The notes: generated from the letters alone by a model not told the origin. Positions 1 through 7,767 are shown, numbered from the stretch's first letter. The stretch: 24,000 nt of DNA from Spirochaetaceae bacterium (GCA_017614995.1 JAGAAX010000028.1:4641-28640), one strand, 5' to 3'. Program-made: numbers and translations.

Positions 1-168
1 ATGATTTTTTCCATAGTGCATGGCTGTGATACAAAAGCCAGCTCCAAAATCCAGAATCTTAAGCCGTTTCTCGTTTTGGAATTTCAGCTGATTAAAGATT
101 ACATCGTAGAAAATCTTGCCCCAAGGCTGCTCTACCATTTTCCGATAGTTTTCAATTGGTGTTGACAT
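1..168 (-). CDS. Class I SAM-dependent methyltransferase, N-terminal fragment (gene runs off the left edge)
   Basis: Edge-truncated, so absent from the ORF track. Reverse complement of 168..1 reads without stops as MSTPIENYRKMVEQPWGKIFYDVIFNQLKFQNEKRLKILDFGAGFCITAMHYGKNH, with an LDFGAG AdoMet-binding motif I. AAGGGAG (176..182, minus) lies 8 nt upstream of the ATG at 168. Confidence 0.6.
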   Translation of the reverse strand, partial: MSTPIENYRKMVEQPWGKIFYDVIFNQLKFQNEKRLKILDFGAGFCITAMHYGKNH

Positions 169-181
169 TTTTTAACTCCCT

Positions 182-646
182 TTATAACAGCTTAGCAAGT
201 TCTTTGAGCAATTGCTGCTTCATCTTTTTCAGTTCTTCTTCGCCGGGTCTTTCAGAATTTGCGTACATTTTTTCCATCGGATACCACCATACCGGACCTT
301 TCCCTTTATTGCCGTACTCTCCAAGATCTCCGGCTTTCCGGGGAAACAGGTGCCAGTGGATATGAGCGCCACCTTTACCGTTGCCAAGACATTCATAATT
401 CATCTTTTCAGCACCGAAAGCATTTTTTACAGCCTGAGCTACAACCGTCATTTCCTCAAGATGCTTTGCTCTGACAGCCGGCTCCAGATCGAATAGCTCA
501 ACAGCATGATCCTTATAGATGAACAGCGTATAGCCCTTAAAATGCTGAAAGTCTCCGATTACAACATATCCGGTTTCCAGTTCTTTTACGAAGTAAGGAT
601 TTGTACCGTCCTTGATCATCTGAATTCTTTCGCAAACACCGCACAT
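182..646 (-). CDS. HIT (histidine triad) family nucleotide hydrolase/transferase
   Basis: The ORF contains the histidine triad HIHWHLFPR (HxHxHxx) and an N-terminal CxxC (MCGVCERI) typical of HIT proteins. I prefer the ATG at 646; the track's 664 start is a GTG overlapping the upstream gene. Confidence 0.85.
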   Translation of the reverse strand: MCGVCERIQMIKDGTNPYFVKELETGYVVIGDFQHFKGYTLFIYKDHAVELFDLEPAVRAKHLEEMTVVAQAVKNAFGAEKMNYECLGNGKGGAHIHWHLFPRKAGDLGEYGNKGKGPVWWYPMEKMYANSERPGEEELKKMKQQLLKELAKLL

Positions 647-657
647 TTTCTGCCTAT

Positions 658-1080
658 TTACCACACTGCTTTTTCGCCGGTTACTTTTTCACCAAGCCAG
701 CTTGCGTTGTATTCAACAAAGCACTTTGTATACGGCAAATCCTTGTATTTTTCCTGATGTTTCAGAATAGGATAAATTACGCTTCCCCAGCCAACAGAAA
801 CGATTCCAACAAAAGCGTACAAAGGGCCAAGAACAAGCGACTGAATTGTGTGGCCGTACTCGTGTACTCTGGCTCCTGTAAAATAATCGCCCTCGTTGTT
901 TGGAACGAAAATGAAAGGACCGAGACTCAAGCCTGCCCAGCGGTCATTCCATTGTGTTTGAATTGCACATCTGTAGAACTTATGCGGCTTATTGATATGG
1001 ATTAAGAAAAACAACAAGCCGATGAGTGTCTGTCCTAATCCCCAGGTACATTGAATTAATAAATAAATGATTCTTTTCAT
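658..1080 (-). CDS. Small integral membrane protein with an HExxH motif (possible membrane metallopeptidase-like protein)
   Basis: Hydrophobic segments are WGLGQTLIGLLFFLI and LVLGPLYAFVGIVSVGW, and the motif is ARVHEYGHTIQ. I start at the internal ATG 1080 (MKRIIYLL...). The 19 extra codons of the track ORF run into an intergenic inverted repeat. Family not recognised. Confidence 0.55.
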   Translation of the reverse strand: MKRIIYLLIQCTWGLGQTLIGLLFFLIHINKPHKFYRCAIQTQWNDRWAGLSLGPFIFVPNNEGDYFTGARVHEYGHTIQSLVLGPLYAFVGIVSVGWGSVIYPILKHQEKYKDLPYTKCFVEYNASWLGEKVTGEKAVW

Positions 1081-1109
1081 GGTTTTAGTATAAGTTATGA
1101 TTGCTGAAT

Positions 1110-1165
1110 CTGCAATGTGCAAAAAGGTAAGATGCAAAAACTAAAGGGTGAAATGCACATTGCAG
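1110..1165. repeat. Perfect 12-bp inverted repeat (CTGCAATGTGCA / TGCACATTGCAG) with a 32-nt loop
   Basis: The arms at 1110..1121 and 1154..1165 are exact reverse complements. The repeat lies in the 89-bp gap between the GNAT stop (1170) and the membrane-protein start (1080). Confidence 0.7.
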
Positions 1166-1169
1166 CCAG

Positions 1170-1751
1170 TTACTTCAATTTCTTCATTTTTACAGGGTAG
1201 CCGTTGCCCAGCAGGCGCATCAAAGAAAACTTCTCGCGTTTTTCAACAACAAAGCCGTTTTTCTCGTACAGCTTTATAGCCGGCAGGTTCTTTGAAAAAA
1301 CGTGGACATAAAAAGTGTTATAGCCTTTTTGCGCGAAAGCATGATTCAGAAGCGCCGAACCCACTCCTTTGCGCCGCGTTTCACCGCTTGTTACCAGAAC
1401 GTCAATATAAAGTTCATCTGCTGATTCTACGACGGGCTTTTGAAAGATGCTGTTCATCTGGTTACTGATCATTTTGCCGCGCATATTTCCAAAGTATTTT
1501 ACGCAAGGTTCCAGCCTGAAATTCAGCGGGCGCACTTCGTTTGTCGCGATTCCGATTAAGCCAAGGACTTTTTCGCCTTCAACGTAACACCTGAAAAGCT
1601 CAGGATCAAAGATTTCGGCTAAAAGGCTTCGGATTAATGCGCCGTCTTTTGAAAACGTCATCATGTGCCCGAAGCCTTCCATAAAAAGTTCGACAGCTTG
1701 TTTTCTCTGGTTTTCGTTAAGCTTGCTGTAATTTACAATTGTATATTCCAT
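1170..1751 (-). CDS. GNAT family N-acetyltransferase
   Basis: 193 aa with acetyl-CoA motif A (SGETRRKGVGSALLNHA) followed by AIKLYEKNGF. The start lies 1 nt after the upstream stop (TAA-T-ATG). Confidence 0.85.
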   Translation of the reverse strand: MEYTIVNYSKLNENQRKQAVELFMEGFGHMMTFSKDGALIRSLLAEIFDPELFRCYVEGEKVLGLIGIATNEVRPLNFRLEPCVKYFGNMRGKMISNQMNSIFQKPVVESADELYIDVLVTSGETRRKGVGSALLNHAFAQKGYNTFYVHVFSKNLPAIKLYEKNGFVVEKREKFSLMRLLGNGYPVKMKKLK

Positions 1752-1752
1752 A

Positions 1753-2664
1753 TTATTTTCCCCATATTGTCCAGTGCCAGCCTTTTCCGTAGCCGATTTT
1801 CTTGTAAAACGGATCTTCGCCGCCGGTCATGTGGGTTGCGCCGAGAGGTTTAAGCGTGCGGTAATGCTTTGTAAGAGCAGCAGCGGCCAAGCCACGTTTA
1901 CGGTGGTCCGGGTGAGTGCAAAGCGGTTCCATATAAGCAAGGTGATTTTGAGGAACCCACCACATGCCAGAGAAACACACATATTCTTCATTTTCATCTG
2001 CTATGATGATATTGTATTCTGGTGTTTCATGTGGGGAAGGCGAGATGAAAGAACCCCAGCCACTTTTATGCGATTTTGCGGGTGTCCATTCCAGAGAATC
2101 ATCATATTTGTCCCAGTCTTTAAACTCACCACGCTCGCCATGACCAAATCCATACCAGCAGAGCTTTGAACATTTTACGATATCAATATCCTTTTGCTCC
2201 ACAAAATGATAGCCCGCAGGCAGTTCGTAATTCAGTTCATTTTGAAAATCAAAAATCATGTCTTCATATTCATAAACCTGTTTGAAGCCACGCTTTGCTG
2301 TAACTTCCTTTAAGAATTGCTGACCATCAGAAAAAACAAACTGCTGCTCGCCGCCAAAGTGGGGCATAGTGCTGATTGCATAATCAATCAATTCTTCAGC
2401 AAGAAACTCATAACCCTTGCGAACATTGAAATAAATGTCGGTCACCGGTGCTTCGTAATAAACAAAGGCAACAACCTTATCGCCATCGAACCAGAATCTG
2501 TTCAAAAACGAATATGACGAATCCATCCAAGAAGAACGGAGCGCATATTCAAAAAACGGAGCCGGCCGTCCACTGGCATTTTTCCAGTCGTAAGTGTCTA
2601 CAAGAAAATCCCATACGAGATTTATATCTGATAATATTTGAAATTGTTTTGTTGTAATGTTCAT
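1753..2664 (-). CDS. GNAT-domain protein (C-terminal acetyltransferase fold, uncharacterised N-terminal half)
   Basis: 303 aa. The C-terminal region LCTHPDHRKRGLAAAALTKH...FYKKIGY matches GNAT motif A/B. GAGGA lies 5 nt upstream of the ATG at 2664. Confidence 0.75.
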   Translation of the reverse strand: MNITTKQFQILSDINLVWDFLVDTYDWKNASGRPAPFFEYALRSSWMDSSYSFLNRFWFDGDKVVAFVYYEAPVTDIYFNVRKGYEFLAEELIDYAISTMPHFGGEQQFVFSDGQQFLKEVTAKRGFKQVYEYEDMIFDFQNELNYELPAGYHFVEQKDIDIVKCSKLCWYGFGHGERGEFKDWDKYDDSLEWTPAKSHKSGWGSFISPSPHETPEYNIIIADENEEYVCFSGMWWVPQNHLAYMEPLCTHPDHRKRGLAAAALTKHYRTLKPLGATHMTGGEDPFYKKIGYGKGWHWTIWGK

Positions 2665-2681
2665 AATCTTCCTCTTGAGGT

Positions 2682-2740
2682 GTCATTCCGAATTTATTTC
2701 GGAATCCTAATTATAGATCCTGAAACAAGTTCAGGATGAC
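2682..2740. repeat. Head-out doublet of GTCATT-hairpin (REP-like) repeats
   Basis: 2682..2706 is GTCA-TTCCGAA-tttat-TTCGGAA-TC. 2716..2740, read on the minus strand, is GTCA-TCCTGAA-cttgt-TTCAGGA-TC. The spacer is 9 nt. Confidence 0.85.
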
Positions 2741-2749
2741 GGTTATTTA

Positions 2750-3553
2750 TTAAAATAGTTCATACAGCAAAATGTAATATTTGATTTTATCCCAGTCAGG
2801 TTTGATGCCAAGAGCATCAAATAATAACTCGGCCTTAAAATCAGAATAAATCTTTTTGCCCCAGGTTCCGTCTGCGTTGTGTTTAAGGCTTCGATAGCAG
2901 AGTGCAATGTCCAGCCATTTGTCGCCAGCACCAGTATCACCAAGGTCAATGAAACCGCCAGGCTTGTTGCCATCTATAAAAATATTTGGCAAACAACAAT
3001 CTCCGTGAGACAAAACCGGCTCATATGTCGGGCGGTTTGCTTCCAGCCATTCAAGCAATTCCACAGGATTTTCAAAACCAGCAGGACCAAAGGTTTCTGG
3101 CTCAGCGTCATCCACATCTATAAGATTGTTTTCAACACGATATCTTGCTTCTTTAAGCTTATCTTCAAGCGTTATTTTGCGAGGGCAGTCAGAAATATCT
3201 ACACTCCACAAAAGCTTAAGAGCCTCGGCAAGATGTTGGCAAAGCTCATTTGGCCGTGACATATAGTAATCATCACAGCTCATAATGCCGGGAACCTTAC
3301 TCATAAGAAGGTATTGAAGACCAGTTGCTTCATCCTTTTCATAAGCAATAACTTTTGGAACCGGAATCTTTCCTTCCAGCCAGCGCATCACCTTTACAGT
3401 TTCATCATTTTTCGTAGAAGCTTTTTCTGTCTTGAGCACACAGTCATCAAACATCAGCACCTTTGCCTGCGACTTTCCGATATCATCAGACGTGTAATTT
3501 TTGCCCAAGACAAGTGCTTTGATTTTTTTCGGCAGATTAAAATCTTCAATCAT
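2750..3553 (-). CDS. aph(3'): Aminoglycoside 3'-phosphotransferase family kinase, APH(3')
   Basis: 267 aa with the Brenner/catalytic motif SHGDCCLPNIF, the activation motif GFIDLGDTGAGDKWLDIALCYRS, and C-terminal tail LGIKPDWDKIKYYILLYELF. From memory, that tail is almost identical to the APH(3')-IIIa tail (LGIKPDWEKIKYYILLDELF). Confidence 0.9.
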   Translation of the reverse strand: MIEDFNLPKKIKALVLGKNYTSDDIGKSQAKVLMFDDCVLKTEKASTKNDETVKVMRWLEGKIPVPKVIAYEKDEATGLQYLLMSKVPGIMSCDDYYMSRPNELCQHLAEALKLLWSVDISDCPRKITLEDKLKEARYRVENNLIDVDDAEPETFGPAGFENPVELLEWLEANRPTYEPVLSHGDCCLPNIFIDGNKPGGFIDLGDTGAGDKWLDIALCYRSLKHNADGTWGKKIYSDFKAELLFDALGIKPDWDKIKYYILLYELF

Positions 3554-3562
3554 AATTAGTCC

Positions 3563-4246
3563 TTAAGAAAAAGACATCAAGTCATCAAGCGTATCTGCTG
3601 TATCTACAGGAACCCAGTGACCTTCCATGCAAATCTCCGGATTAAGCGATTTGATTTTAGCTTCGAGTTTCTTGCACTTTTCCTTGTCTTTGATTCCTGT
3701 CATAAAATCATCGCAAGTGGAGTCTCCCATGAAAAGCACTTTGTCTTCAGCCACATATACAAGTGTAGAATCCTCAGTGTGCGGAGCCTCACTTTCAACA
3801 ATTCGAACTGTGCAGCCGCCAAGGTCAAGTGTCATTTCGCCGGAAAACAGCATGTCTGCCAAAGAGACAACCACTTTTTTGCCATCTGCGTATTCTTTTC
3901 TGATGCTTTCATCAAGAGCAAGAAATTCGCTTGTGCCGTTTGCTTCAATTTTTCGCCTGCATTCAACGAGGTGCTTGTTTGTCCTTTCATTTGCAAGACA
4001 TAAGCCGTTTACAGCGTGCATACCAAAAGTGTGATCCCAGTGCCAGTGGGTAAGCACAGTAAGCGAGGGCAGTGGCAGACGTGCTTTCTCTAAAAGAGCG
4101 TAAAATTCTTTTACATGAGATGCAGAATGTCCTGCATCTATAGCTAAGCTCCAGTTTTTGCCTTTTACATAACCAAGGTTCGGACGGTCTCTTTCAGATT
4201 CAAACGGCATGTACCAGATATGTTCAGATAATTTTTTAAGTTCCAT
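3563..4246 (-). CDS. MBL-fold metallo-hydrolase
   Basis: Metal-binding motif LTHWHWDHTFG (HxHxDH), later MGDS and EGHW. Preferred start is the ATG at 4246, with GGAG 6 nt upstream. An alternative ATG at 4258 overlaps the upstream stop (TAATG). The track start at 4300 overlaps the upstream gene. Confidence 0.85.
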   Translation of the reverse strand: MELKKLSEHIWYMPFESERDRPNLGYVKGKNWSLAIDAGHSASHVKEFYALLEKARLPLPSLTVLTHWHWDHTFGMHAVNGLCLANERTNKHLVECRRKIEANGTSEFLALDESIRKEYADGKKVVVSLADMLFSGEMTLDLGGCTVRIVESEAPHTEDSTLVYVAEDKVLFMGDSTCDDFMTGIKDKEKCKKLEAKIKSLNPEICMEGHWVPVDTADTLDDLMSFS

Positions 4247-4257
4247 TTTTTTCTCCA

Positions 4258-4707
4258 TTAGTTGCCAAAATATTTGGAAAAAGCCACATTTGTCGTACAC
4301 TCAACAAATCCGTTTTTCTTATAAAAATGATAAGCCGGAACATTCGAGTCTGTCAGCAAAAAAATCTGCTTTAGCCCAAGTTCTTTAATTGCTTTTTCAA
4401 TTTCAGCAATAAAGAAAGAGCCTGCACCTGAGCCCTGCCGCTCGGTCTTTATACAGAATTCGTTGATGATATATTCTGTTCCCGAATACCAGTGCTTTAT
4501 ATACCCCAGAGCAATTCCAATGAGCTCATCATCATCGTACAAACCGTAAGTCAAAGAATAGCCCTGACCGACAAGGTCATTTATGTACATATCAAGCTGG
4601 TTTTTGTCCGACCAGTCATCATTCCAGGGTTCTTTTGTAAAGACGCCGGTAAATACGCTTGTAATAGCTTCTTTATCTTCTATATAGAGTCTTTTTAGTT
4701 TAAGCAT
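4258..4707 (-). CDS. GNAT family N-acetyltransferase
   Basis: 149 aa with FCIKTERQGSGAGSFFIAEIEKA (motif A) and AYHFYKKNGF (motif B). Confidence 0.85.
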   Translation of the reverse strand: MLKLKRLYIEDKEAITSVFTGVFTKEPWNDDWSDKNQLDMYINDLVGQGYSLTYGLYDDDELIGIALGYIKHWYSGTEYIINEFCIKTERQGSGAGSFFIAEIEKAIKELGLKQIFLLTDSNVPAYHFYKKNGFVECTTNVAFSKYFGN

Positions 4708-4726
4708 TTTCTTCTCCCGTTAAACC

Positions 4727-5377
4727 TTACGCTTCCGCTTTAAGCGTATAAGTATGATCCCAGTTTTTGAGCACTTCTACTTTTGAAAAGCCGGCTGCCA
4801 GCAATGCCTCTTTTTCATGCTCAACAGTCAGCGGTGTATCATAGTGATAGAACTCACCGTCGGGCAGATTCTGCTCTTTTCGCAAACGGAGCAGTTCCTG
4901 CCTCCGGGCGGTTTCTTCTTCTTCAGTCATTGCAAAATAATCTGTCAGAATGAAATAACCGCCGCTTTTCAAGGCAGCCTTTAGTTTGGTGTAAAGCGGA
5001 ATCTTTTCTTCTTTTGTGAAATGATGCAGTGATTCAACCGACACAGCCGCGTCAAACAGAGCCTCGCCGAAAGGCACTTCAAAGTATGAGCCCAAAATCA
5101 GAGTAATATCTTTGCCGCTGAATTTCTTTTTCAGTGCATTGAGCATACCGGCTGCAAGATCTATGCCGGTTACCTTTGCTTCCGGATTCAGGGCAAAGAA
5201 CTCGTCAAGCTCAAGCCCTGTGCCGCAGCCTAAATCCAAAATCTTAGCGCCGGTTTCTTTAGGCAGACACCCTGCCGTAAACGGATAAAACTCCTGTGCA
5301 AAGTCTATAGTATTAAGCTGATGCTCTTCGTAGCCTTCCGTACGGGCATCAAAAAAATCTCCCATTTTTTCTAGCAT
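4727..5377 (-). CDS. Class I SAM-dependent methyltransferase
   Basis: 216 aa with motif I KILDLGCGTGLE, an acidic post-I residue (TGIDLA), and a Rossmann-type layout. Confidence 0.85.
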   Translation of the reverse strand: MLEKMGDFFDARTEGYEEHQLNTIDFAQEFYPFTAGCLPKETGAKILDLGCGTGLELDEFFALNPEAKVTGIDLAAGMLNALKKKFSGKDITLILGSYFEVPFGEALFDAAVSVESLHHFTKEEKIPLYTKLKAALKSGGYFILTDYFAMTEEEETARRQELLRLRKEQNLPDGEFYHYDTPLTVEHEKEALLAAGFSKVEVLKNWDHTYTLKAEA

Positions 5378-5401
5378 TTTCTTTTTTTCCTTTATTAAGT
5401 T

Positions 5402-6103
5402 TTACAAACAATATACAGCGTATTCTGACAAAGCTTTAAAACCATGACTTTTTGCCAGATTTGCAGATACCGGGTTCTGCGCGTCCCAATGCATTGTCAG
5501 CTTCTTTTTGCAGCACTGACGCATAACTTCAGCGGTGCAGTGGTCTGCAAGCCCGCGTTTCTGATGTTCAGGTTCTGTAGAAATATCAAGCTCTACATGG
5601 CCGTTATAAGTCAGAAAACTTGAAGCTGCTGCAACAACCTTTCCGCCGTAAAGTACCGCAGCGCCAACGCCTGTTTTTGAAAAATCCTGAAAATCTCTGT
5701 AGTTTTTTCCATGATCAAAAGGATGTGCTTCAAAAACCGCTTGCGTAAACGGAGTTATGCTGTAGCCTTCAGGCAACGGCTTTAACTGCTTTTGTGATTC
5801 ACTGCAAAGCGGCGACATAAGTTCCCGGCGGAAAGCAATTTGAATGTGCAGAGCTTTGATAAAGCTTTCCCATTCAGTGCTCATGCATACAAGCCAGTTT
5901 GCATAAAACAGTTCCTGATGTTCTTCAAAAAAACGCCTGTCCGGTTTTCCGCATAAATATGTGAATAAAGCTTTGCAGACGCAGCCTTCAGAATAAGAGA
6001 AAACAGACCCGAACTGTCCTGCTTTGCAGGCACTTAATAAGAGCGGCTCTTCTGTGAGAATTCCGCTGCTATTTTTATTCCAGATTTCAAATTTGTTTTC
6101 CAT
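5402..6103 (-). CDS. GNAT-like acetyltransferase (C-terminal GNAT fold)
   Basis: 233 aa. The C-terminal ISTEPEHQKRGLADHCTAEVMRQC...NLAKSHGF resembles GNAT motif A/B. The N-terminal half is not recognised. Confidence 0.65.
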   Translation of the reverse strand: MENKFEIWNKNSSGILTEEPLLLSACKAGQFGSVFSYSEGCVCKALFTYLCGKPDRRFFEEHQELFYANWLVCMSTEWESFIKALHIQIAFRRELMSPLCSESQKQLKPLPEGYSITPFTQAVFEAHPFDHGKNYRDFQDFSKTGVGAAVLYGGKVVAAASSFLTYNGHVELDISTEPEHQKRGLADHCTAEVMRQCCKKKLTMHWDAQNPVSANLAKSHGFKALSEYAVYCL

Positions 6104-6128
6104 ATTCTTTCCTTAGTTAAGCGTCTTG

Positions 6129-6752
6129 TCAGATAATTAAGCTGTTAATCTCGTTCTGCAAATTTGCAAGAAATTTTCCTGCATGAGCGCCGTCCATCTG
6201 CGTATGATGAAATTGAAACGACAGCATCAGATAATAGTGGAAAAGCTTTTTTGTGTAGCGTCCCCAAATCAGAAACGGATTATTGAAATCACTGTGCATA
6301 CCCACTGCGCCGTCAATTTCTGTATCAACAATTGCTGATGTACCGATGACCATGCAGACAGCAGATAAATCTCTGTCTGTGCAATTTTCAGCAGCTTCAG
6401 CAGTATATTTCAGATATTCCTGATTGAAGGTCACTAAATCATTTGAGAACATAATATCACAGGAATTAACTTCACCGTTTTTGTTCTTTACAATTGTATT
6501 CACCGCAATTTTATCGTACTGAATCAATTTGTCACCGACTGGAAGAATGAAAAACTCTTTTACGCAAAAAGCAGCTTTTCCAATGCAGTAATCAAGAAGC
6601 ATGTTGAACTTCAGCTTTTTCTTTCTGCTGATTTTTACAAGATTTGTGATATCAAGCTTCTTAAAAAATGTTACCATCGGATTCGGTGCTTTCAGCCAAA
6701 GTTTGTATGCCGCAGCTCTTGTTGTTTCTTCTGGTTGTATTTCTTTTGCCAT
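6129..6752 (-). CDS. cat: Chloramphenicol O-acetyltransferase family (type A CAT-like)
   Basis: 207 aa, the size of classical CATs. Catalytic signature SFQFHHTQMDGAHAGKF (HHxxxDG). The start overlaps the upstream stop as TAATG. Confidence 0.8.
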   Translation of the reverse strand: MAKEIQPEETTRAAAYKLWLKAPNPMVTFFKKLDITNLVKISRKKKLKFNMLLDYCIGKAAFCVKEFFILPVGDKLIQYDKIAVNTIVKNKNGEVNSCDIMFSNDLVTFNQEYLKYTAEAAENCTDRDLSAVCMVIGTSAIVDTEIDGAVGMHSDFNNPFLIWGRYTKKLFHYYLMLSFQFHHTQMDGAHAGKFLANLQNEINSLII

Positions 6753-7606
6753 TATCCAATCCTTTCTGAAAGCAGATTCTTAATAACCTTGGTTATTTTT
6801 GATCCGTCTTTTGCTTTGTGGTTCCAGTCAAATTGAACATCACTTCCGGCTGAGGGTTTTTCTGTTATGTTGTCACCAAGGCGGCACGGAATAAGAAGCT
6901 CCCAATAGCGCACCATATACACGTCATCTTTTACAGATTCCACAACCCCGAGATGTTCTTTAAAAATCTGCATAAAGCCTTCCTGAACCTTTACTTTGCG
7001 GTAAGACGGAAATTCTCTGCTGATTTTTTCGAGCGCGCCTTGGTCTGAAATCTTGGCAAAATCTGCGCTTTCTACAAAATGCCCCTTGAATGAAGCAAAA
7101 TCATCATTTAGCGGAAAGCACATATACGCGTCGTAGCTGTTGCCTTCGCCGTCAGTTATGCCGAAGTCTGCACAGCGTTTAAAGCCAAACTTAGGGTAAT
7201 AGTCTGGTTCTCCGGCAAGAATTATTCCGGCAATTCCGGCGTTTTTGGCAAGCTGTATAGTTTCACGGAGCAAAGCACCGCCTATGTCATTTCCTTCTAG
7301 GGTTGGTTCAACCGCCAGCGGCCCGAGCATTGCAACTTCTTTTTTGCGGGTGTCGGCTTTACCGTCAGTGTCCGGGGCGTCTGTAATCCAGGCTTTTGTG
7401 TAATAAACAGCTCCGGCAATTTTCCCGTCAACTTCGGCAATACGGCTTATTTCAGGCAGATAGTCTGCCGAAGCTCTTATGACTCTGAGCATATTGTGCT
7501 CAACACAGCCCGGAAAATACTTGTTCCAGAAGCTCCGCATGGTCATTAATTCGGTCTTTTTATAGTCATCAGGCCGCTCCGGTCTGATAATCAAGTTTTT
7601 AAGCAT
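6752..7606 (-). CDS. GNAT family N-acetyltransferase (YhbS-like core with C-terminal extension)
   Basis: 284 aa with LGPLAVEPTLEGNDIGGALLRETIQLAKNAGIAGIILAGEPDYYPKFGFK, characteristic of the predicted-acetyltransferase YhbS-like group. First gene of the co-directional array. Confidence 0.8.
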   Translation of the reverse strand: MLKNLIIRPERPDDYKKTELMTMRSFWNKYFPGCVEHNMLRVIRASADYLPEISRIAEVDGKIAGAVYYTKAWITDAPDTDGKADTRKKEVAMLGPLAVEPTLEGNDIGGALLRETIQLAKNAGIAGIILAGEPDYYPKFGFKRCADFGITDGEGNSYDAYMCFPLNDDFASFKGHFVESADFAKISDQGALEKISREFPSYRKVKVQEGFMQIFKEHLGVVESVKDDVYMVRYWELLIPCRLGDNITEKPSAGSDVQFDWNHKAKDGSKITKVIKNLLSERIG

Positions 7607-7767
7607 TTTTTTAGCCCTTATAAATTGCCCGCCGCATTCTTGGTTTGCTAAAAGCCGTTTTCCGCGGCGGATTTATCCATTATATTTTTGTGTGCCGTCT
7701 GCTGTAAATAAAGAATTAGTTTAAAAGCTTATTGTCAGGCTTCAATCTATTGATGATAACCGGTACA

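Follow-up and report, generated by a model that had tools for sequence, protein, structure and literature searches.

The DNA analysed here is a stretch of 24,000 nucleotides (the window) from a Spirochaetaceae bacterium (GCA_017614995.1, JAGAAX010000028.1:4641-28640; contig C3:4641-28640 of the genome that we call G000), the left part of which is occupied by a long row of small, same-strand genes for transferases, hydrolases and related proteins. We conclude, with a probability of about 0.6, that this row is a promoter-anchored accretion array, in which independently acting accessory enzymes are turned over gene by gene and a few modules are conserved. The array is real and non-random, yet it is not a fixed multi-enzyme system.

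On this interpretation the array would be a chromosomal accessory locus of a rumen-type Treponema. Its genes, acquired one at a time, would lie in tandem, with a ribosome-binding site for every gene, and would be transcribed jointly from a conserved sigma-70-type promoter adjoining the aconitase gene; two or three additional start sites probably lie inside the array, at the larger gaps. Its acyl-, methyl- and phosphotransferases, together with metallo-β-lactamase-fold (MBL), HIT, NUDIX, HAD and α/β hydrolases, would be cytoplasmic and would most likely each act on a substrate of their own. Rather than forming the steps of one pathway, they would together enable the cell to modify or hydrolyse a broad range of compounds, be they xenobiotics, antibiotics or damaged metabolites. 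Turnover would take three forms: single genes would be gained or lost in the spacers between genes; diverged alleles, arriving by homologous recombination from co-resident Treponema lineages, would take the place of single genes; and hairpins resembling repetitive extragenic palindromic (REP) elements would be inserted. Only the pair GNAT149-MBL, often followed by APH(3') and GNAT303, appears to stay together for long enough to suggest functional coupling. Co-transcription, independent enzyme action and a detoxifying role are what we infer from the sequence and its comparisons.

The anatomy of the array is clear. The listing of open reading frames (ORFs) places every gene from position 7606 down to base 1 on the minus strand, as the original prediction had it. 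In order of transcription these are GNAT284, a gene for a CatA-like (chloramphenicol acetyltransferase-like, CAT-like) protein, a GNAT of the PF12746 family, the methyltransferase (MTase) gene MTase216, GNAT149, MBL, APH(3'), GNAT303, GNAT193, a HExxH membrane protein gene, a HIT gene and the start of MTase240. The window thus holds twelve genes of the array, for five GNATs, two S-adenosylmethionine (SAM)-dependent MTases and one each of the APH, CAT-like, MBL, HIT and HExxH proteins. Six GNATs had been counted previously, a number that profile searches reduce to five, while Pfam and NCBIfam bear out the remaining family assignments. The figure of twelve genes likewise holds for the window only, since the array runs on past its edge. 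To the left, C3:1-4808 carries six further same-strand genes including MTase240, up to the contig end; they encode MTase240, an α/β hydrolase, an RrnaAD-like MTase (MTase255), a HAD protein, a NUDIX protein and an APH-like kinase. In all the array comprises at least 18 same-strand genes with gaps of -35 to 115 nt and, by a simple ORF caller, is the longest tight same-strand run among ~1370 runs in this 3.05-Mb genome.

The junctions agree with their earlier description. The stop and start codons overlap as TAATG at 6752 (GNAT284/CAT-like) and 4258 (GNAT149/MBL) and adjoin as TAA-T-ATG at 1751-1753, and there are two larger gaps in the window, of 85 nt (2665-2749) and 89 nt (1081-1169), both with hairpins. 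The remaining gaps measure 9-25 nt, with a Shine-Dalgarno-like stretch in each. Searches with Pfam and NCBIfam profiles found no regulator, transporter or mobility gene among the array products, which is also what had been predicted, and no integrase, transposase or insertion sequence (IS) in the array or adjoining it. What does not stand is the claim that the array is AT-rich and hence of accessory origin. Its GC content is 0.409-0.412, compared with 0.4185 for the genome and a mean of 0.412 for genes of 140-310 aa, and it is the aconitase gene, at 0.486, that is the outlier; GC and GC3 of the array are both at the genome mean. A foreign composition was rejected on the strength of this match to the genome and to genes of similar size. 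The array also does not look like a horizontally acquired genomic island, its composition being typical and mobility genes being absent, as far as the contig extends on the left.

The proposed anchor of the array is a sigma-70-type promoter upstream of GNAT284, TTTACA-18-TATAAT (7679..7708, minus strand), which agrees with the consensus at 11 of 12 positions. Across the five arrays compared (G000, G001, G004 and the metagenome loci L105 and L106) neither hexamer varies; the leader downstream of them does vary, that of G001 carrying a hairpin insertion of ~130 nt. No intrinsic terminator was found on the coding strand in any array spacer, and the only Rfam match in the leader and gaps was a chance miRNA (E = 0.09), so that no known RNA element is present there; the leader fold has a z of -1. 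The two larger gaps do carry promoter- or operator-like elements, and for that reason three or four transcription units are as plausible as a single transcript.

Comparison with close relatives shows how the array changes. The loci L105 and L106, with ~96% DNA identity and 99% aconitase identity to G000, belong by these values to the same or a sister species, and beside the aconitase gene both show the same ten genes, in unchanged order. Beyond them, gene content differs. G004 (aconitase 92% identical) is without the CAT-like gene, without MTase216 and without APH and its adjoining REP-like element; in G001 (94%) an amidohydrolase gene and a gene for a YitT-like membrane protein have been inserted; and G006 (91%) has no array at the site, where a different same-strand set (HD, DUF1697, methyltransferase) is found. 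The gene indels between sister species fall exactly in the spacers, with no shared recombination motif seen at their junctions. Synteny is thus kept in L105 and L106, and in blocks in T. bryantii, and is lost gene by gene between the closest species; the original view of the array as a single system fails on the three genes missing from G004, the extra genes of G001 and the lack of an array beside aconitase in G006.

Divergence within the array is similarly mosaic. Between G000 and L105, dS runs from the 0.02 of the CAT-like gene to the 1.08 of GNAT303, neighbours differing by up to 45-fold, and DNA identity, ~96% overall, drops to 77-86% across the segment APH-REP-GNAT303. This spread of dS, together with the local drop in identity, implies that single genes have been replaced by diverged alleles. 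All compared array genes are intact, and for nine of ten of them dN/dS in the same comparison lies between 0.04 and 0.22 (the CAT-like gene, at 0.59, owes its value to very few changes), showing that the compared genes are under purifying selection.

Which parts of the array, then, are kept together? Recurrence is limited to two small modules, GNAT149-MBL and APH(3')-GNAT303. In T. bryantii, a block MTase216-(GNAT)-GNAT149-MBL-APH-GNAT303 lies within another long array; further contigs retain GNAT149-MBL-APH or APH-GNAT303, the latter order being kept in L104, L105, L107, L114 and L116. Among 80 metagenome loci with MBL orthologues, a GNAT149 orthologue stands directly upstream of MBL in 20 of 63 informative loci and any GNAT in 31 of 65; downstream, 11 of 61 loci have a SAM methyltransferase as the neighbour and 9 of 61 an APH. 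Immediate neighbours are on the same strand in 108 of 126 cases, and one such locus (L174) has 18 same-strand genes, nine of them GNATs. Farther afield the genes become sporadic, the MBL orthologue occurring in one of nine other genomes of the genus and in none of 60 sampled genomes of the family; APH is present in six of those 60. Orthologues also occur apart from their partners here. In G007, those of GNAT303 and GNAT284 lie in two other tight arrays, the first with a GNAT, an APH-like kinase and a nitroreductase, the second with three GNATs and a methyltransferase, and the HIT homologue is found in other contexts in G002, G009 and G024. The source of the window is itself a Treponema of the rumen or gut. 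The related contigs derive from rumen and gut metagenomes, livestock-gut samples among them, and a family-level relative is labelled as an uncultured Spirochaetes metagenome-assembled genome (MAG).

Arrays of the same flavour are not confined to this site. Smaller arrays of the same enzyme families, made up of different genes, occur on contigs C41, C34, C5, C50, C42 and C9 of G000. The arrays share almost no paralogues and therefore did not arise by duplication, an origin that was rejected because only HAD209 (39%) and MTase216 (31%) have even weak paralogues in other clusters. When labels were permuted genome-wide for GNAT, Methyltransf_11, APH, NUDIX and HAD genes, 16 adjacent pairs of these five families were observed, compared with 2.5 +/- 1.5 in the permutations, and 10 compared with 1.9 +/- 1.4 when this array was left out. 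The density of these families in the array is far above chance.

These results bear on the simplest alternative, that the genes have merely piled up by chance at a permissive site, with neither expression nor role in common. The fluid gene content would agree with this, as would the lack of any visible pathway logic and the surroundings of the CAT-like gene, for which conserved partners were rejected: in 80 loci with close homologues from many phyla its neighbours are unrelated, and none shares another array gene. A fortuitous pile-up is nevertheless very unlikely, given the invariant promoter, the start/stop overlaps at some junctions, the purifying selection on the genes, the significant genome-wide clustering of the families, and the recurrence of the same family composition in independent arrays.

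A second alternative, that the genes are former integron cassettes or the cargo of a mobile element, is prompted by the genome itself. Contig C28 carries a chromosomal integron (C28:36294-42042), in which an integrase gene is followed by same-strand cassettes with ~65-nt attC sites, running off the contig end. Its intI gene (C28:36294-37559; 420 bits to TIGR02249) is the only match in the genome above the cut-off. A search with an attC consensus built from this integron found copies on C28, C10, C19, C9, C52 and C54 and no attC-like sequence on C3, and an integron origin of the array was rejected on this absence of the C28 motif. Integron cassette arrays, including the chromosomal integrons of Treponema, do resemble the array in consisting of small, mostly promoterless, unrelated and co-oriented genes behind a common promoter, in varying gene by gene between strains and in being rich in acetyltransferases and similar enzymes. 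Both the true integron on C28, with its attC-separated cassettes, and the cassette-like presence or absence of single promoterless genes here would suit such an ancestry. In contrast to those arrays, however, this one has no attC and no adjacent IntI, the aconitase gene lying upstream instead; most of its spacers are at most 25 nt long or are overlaps, too short for attC; and its turnover seems to use homologous recombination and indels. With no integrase, transposase or IS in or beside it, a GC content typical of the genome and an orientation that does not allow it to continue the C28 cassette row, the array is most improbable as integron or mobile-element cargo, and this reading has been largely refuted already.

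The original prediction described the gene families as known for the covalent inactivation of antibiotics or toxic metabolites, raising the possibility that the array is a dedicated antibiotic-inactivation battery, selected as a whole and directed at aminoglycosides, phenicols, streptothricin, β-lactams and peptide-nucleotide antibiotics. For one protein the prediction holds well. The APH(3')-family aminoglycoside O-phosphotransferase (2750..3553, minus strand) scores 240.1 bits against the curated antimicrobial resistance (AMR) model NF033068 (cut-off 205) and has the catalytic HGDxxxxN and DxG motifs, so its membership of the family is well founded; no allele-specific model was passed, and its identity is 40.5% to APH(3')-IIIa and 78% to a 'kanamycin kinase' of T. 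bryantii. The remaining proteins are another matter. The CAT-like protein (6129..6752, minus strand; start overlapping the GNAT284 stop), with an HHxxxDG motif, belongs to CatA-like O-acetyltransferase family 2 (NF040637, 327.8 bits; cut-off 250) and fails the type A CAT model (NF000491, 52.9 bits; cut-off 270). The MBL-fold hydrolase (3563..4258, minus strand; PF00753, 6e-7; HWHWDH motif) fails all class B β-lactamase models (NF012229, 29.1 bits against a cut-off of 100; NF033088, 33.1 against 200). Its N-terminus was inspected by eye only, no prediction having been run, and no signal peptide was evident. MTase255 reaches 47.4 bits against a cut-off of 212 for the Erm model NF000499, in an alignment limited to its SAM-binding N-terminal third. 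The HIT protein and the GNATs, considered as microcin C-type immunity enzymes of the HIT phosphoramidase and MccE-like kinds, respectively, give generic PF01230 and PF00583 matches with no NCBIfam model and uncharacterised neighbours in the PDB, the characterised proteins not having been compared directly. Only the APH(3') and CatA-like family 2 proteins reach curated family cut-offs, and 16 of the 18 array proteins are generic superfamily members.

A dedicated battery nevertheless gains something from the company that such genes keep elsewhere. Related arrays add nucleotidyltransferases of the AadA-like and PF04439 types, PF00144 proteins and members of the glyoxalase/bleomycin-resistance family; fusions of NUDIX to APH and of GNAT to APH occur among the homologues; and the samples come from the livestock gut. 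With one protein of 18 at a resistance-family cut-off, however, and with gene content that is not conserved, selection of the whole for this purpose seems unlikely.

Could the array instead serve the cell's own metabolism, as a housecleaning or metabolite-repair operon for the removal of damaged or non-canonical nucleotides, acyl-CoA side products and reactive intermediates? Damage control is the classical task of the NUDIX, HAD, HIT, MBL-fold, GNAT and small MTase families. All are represented in the array, where HAD209 is YjjG-like (70 bits), and the proteins may all be cytoplasmic, inspection by eye having revealed no evident signal peptide. Repair enzymes are normally conserved, however, whereas the array genes are patchy even within the genus and have been exchanged between lineages, and we consider such a role for the operon distinctly unlikely, somewhat more so than that of an antibiotic battery.

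Several observations also weigh against the accretion array that we prefer. The recurrence of the same families at several sites could mean merely that these are the commonest small accessory genes, with no shared role. Promoter-like matches inside the array are not enriched (18, compared with 13.8 +/- 3.5 in shuffled sequence), and because they are no commoner than by chance, both co-transcription and internal starts are putative. Searches of solved structures with seven array proteins returned only uncharacterised (structural-genomics) or distant matches; for MBL no close solved homologue was found. Finally, the contig end truncates the array on its downstream side.

Comparison with known systems helps to place the array. 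Like regions of genomic plasticity and integration hotspots, it has a fixed position beside a core gene (aconitase), gene sets that differ between sister species and a native GC content; unlike them, it is one tight co-directional unit of a single functional flavour with a conserved promoter, and has no mixture of phage, IS and defence genes. Clusters of the aadE-sat4-aphA-3 type similarly bring together unrelated drug-modifying enzymes, including an APH(3'), that are co-transcribed, as we infer for the genes here. Those clusters are short, mobile and clinically selected, and their resistance genes are proven. This contrasts markedly with the array, which has no mobile element and an APH that shares no more than 40.5% identity with APH(3')-IIIa, and whose proteins are generic in 16 cases out of 18. 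A further parallel is the WhiB7 regulon of mycobacteria, in which, according to one account (PMC10727445), many GNATs, methyltransferases and phosphotransferases are deployed jointly as an intrinsic chemical defence. That regulon is dispersed and under a dedicated regulator, whereas the array forms one contiguous stretch in which no regulator was found.

Literature searches found no account of such arrays in Treponema. If they are co-expressed chemical-defence loci, they would serve livestock gut spirochaetes as a so far unrecognised reservoir of, and assembly line for, drug-modifying enzymes, among them the APH(3'), whose lineage is widespread in rumen metagenomes. They would then show, too, that genes can be exchanged in cassette-like fashion without a site-specific recombinase. 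If, on the other hand, the site is merely a permissive dumping ground, the array would represent ordinary genome plasticity. A broader proposal, tentative and on balance doubtful, is that rumen Treponema, and perhaps other anaerobes, maintain recombinase-free 'cassette' super-operons, in which promoterless enzyme genes behind a fixed promoter are swapped singly among co-resident lineages by homologous recombination. Such a chemical-defence island would be integron-like without attC or IntI, and the chemical counterpart of phage-defence islands.

A NUDIX gene followed by a gene for an APH-family kinase occurs twice in the genome (C3:135-1647 and C41:65264-66631), and other gut bacteria have NUDIX-APH(3') fusions of 424-434 aa, with one GNAT-APH fusion (P0044, P0049, P0087 and others). 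This gene order, taken with the fusions, suggests an uncharacterised enzyme partnership; the GNAT-MBL(-APH) module likewise points to partnerships of this kind.

Of the two larger gaps in the window, that between APH(3') and GNAT303 contains a REP-like hairpin doublet (2681..2741), a dispersed repeat of which G000 and other genomes of the genus carry dozens of copies, on either strand; in L105 the doublet is missing and the gap is 14 nt. Other hairpin inserts, the sequences of which were not compared with the doublet, are those in the G001 GNAT284 leader and possibly in a 120-nt GNAT149-MBL gap of L105. The other gap is the leader of the HExxH gene (1081..1169, minus strand), in which a 12-bp inverted repeat lies over a promoter-like TTGCAG-17-TATACT. 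Since a Shine-Dalgarno sequence is lacking and only ~8 nt separate the -10 element from the ATG, the start may be leaderless, and the leader as a whole may be an internal, operator-regulated start. It moves with its gene, being found in L105, L104 (T. bryantii) and L112 and, in diverged form, in G004 and G005. A 24-nt motif, TTACCTTTTTG-C/A-ACATTGCAGAT, is common to two larger internal gaps (window 1081-1169; L001:4010-4085) and makes up the 12-bp inverted repeat in front of the HExxH gene, and a motif related to this 24-nt motif of the HExxH leader lies upstream of the α/β hydrolase gene. The possibility that it is a dispersed repeat was rejected, as it is confined to this array and to HExxH orthologues.

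The remaining genes, all on the minus strand, are of the following kinds. GNAT284 (6752..7606), which opens the array, combines a GNAT domain at its N-terminus (PF00583, 7e-7) with a C-terminal extension of ~140 aa; its nearest PDB match is an uncharacterised acetyltransferase, 4zbg, and it is 93-97% identical in G001, G004 and L105. The PF12746 GNAT (5402..6103; 233 aa; 4e-38) matches another uncharacterised structure, 3g3s. MTase216 (4727..5377; 216 aa), a class I SAM-dependent methyltransferase by its matches to PF13649 and PF08241 (1e-17 to 1e-18), passes no NCBIfam model and is 91% identical to its T. bryantii orthologue within the corresponding block. Three further PF00583 proteins are GNAT149 (4258..4707; 9e-13), the upstream partner in the GNAT-MBL pair, GNAT303 (1753..2664; 2e-7), the partner of APH(3') in several genomes, and GNAT193 (1170..1751; 2e-10), which is 98% identical in L105. 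The HExxH membrane protein (658..1080; 140 aa) shows a HEYGH motif and hydrophobic segments in its translation and has no Pfam or NCBIfam match; its orthologues in L104, L105, L107 and L112 are 87-96% identical. The HIT-family protein (182..664; PF01230, 1.3e-8), with the HxHxH motif HIHWH, matches only uncharacterised HIT structures, and the 5' part of MTase240 (1..167) continues outside the window on C3:1-4808.

The CAT-like protein has homologues 72-78% identical in MAGs of many phyla (loci L024-L103), labelled as Clostridia, Synergistes, Bacteroidales, Planctomycetes, Alphaproteobacteria, Elusimicrobia, Akkermansia and Treponema; it is a strongly conserved protein that has been transferred widely. 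The genome also contains remnants of array genes at other sites. C23:3462-3599 encodes the final 47 aa of MTase240 (89% identity), beside genes that follow MTase240 in G001, which we read as the footprint of a rearrangement, and C10:3542-3778 encodes the final 79 aa of MTase255 (75% identity). In L104, L109, L110 and L111, though not in the window, the enzyme array is preceded by a gene for an RsgA-like GTPase of 341 aa (238 aa in L111).

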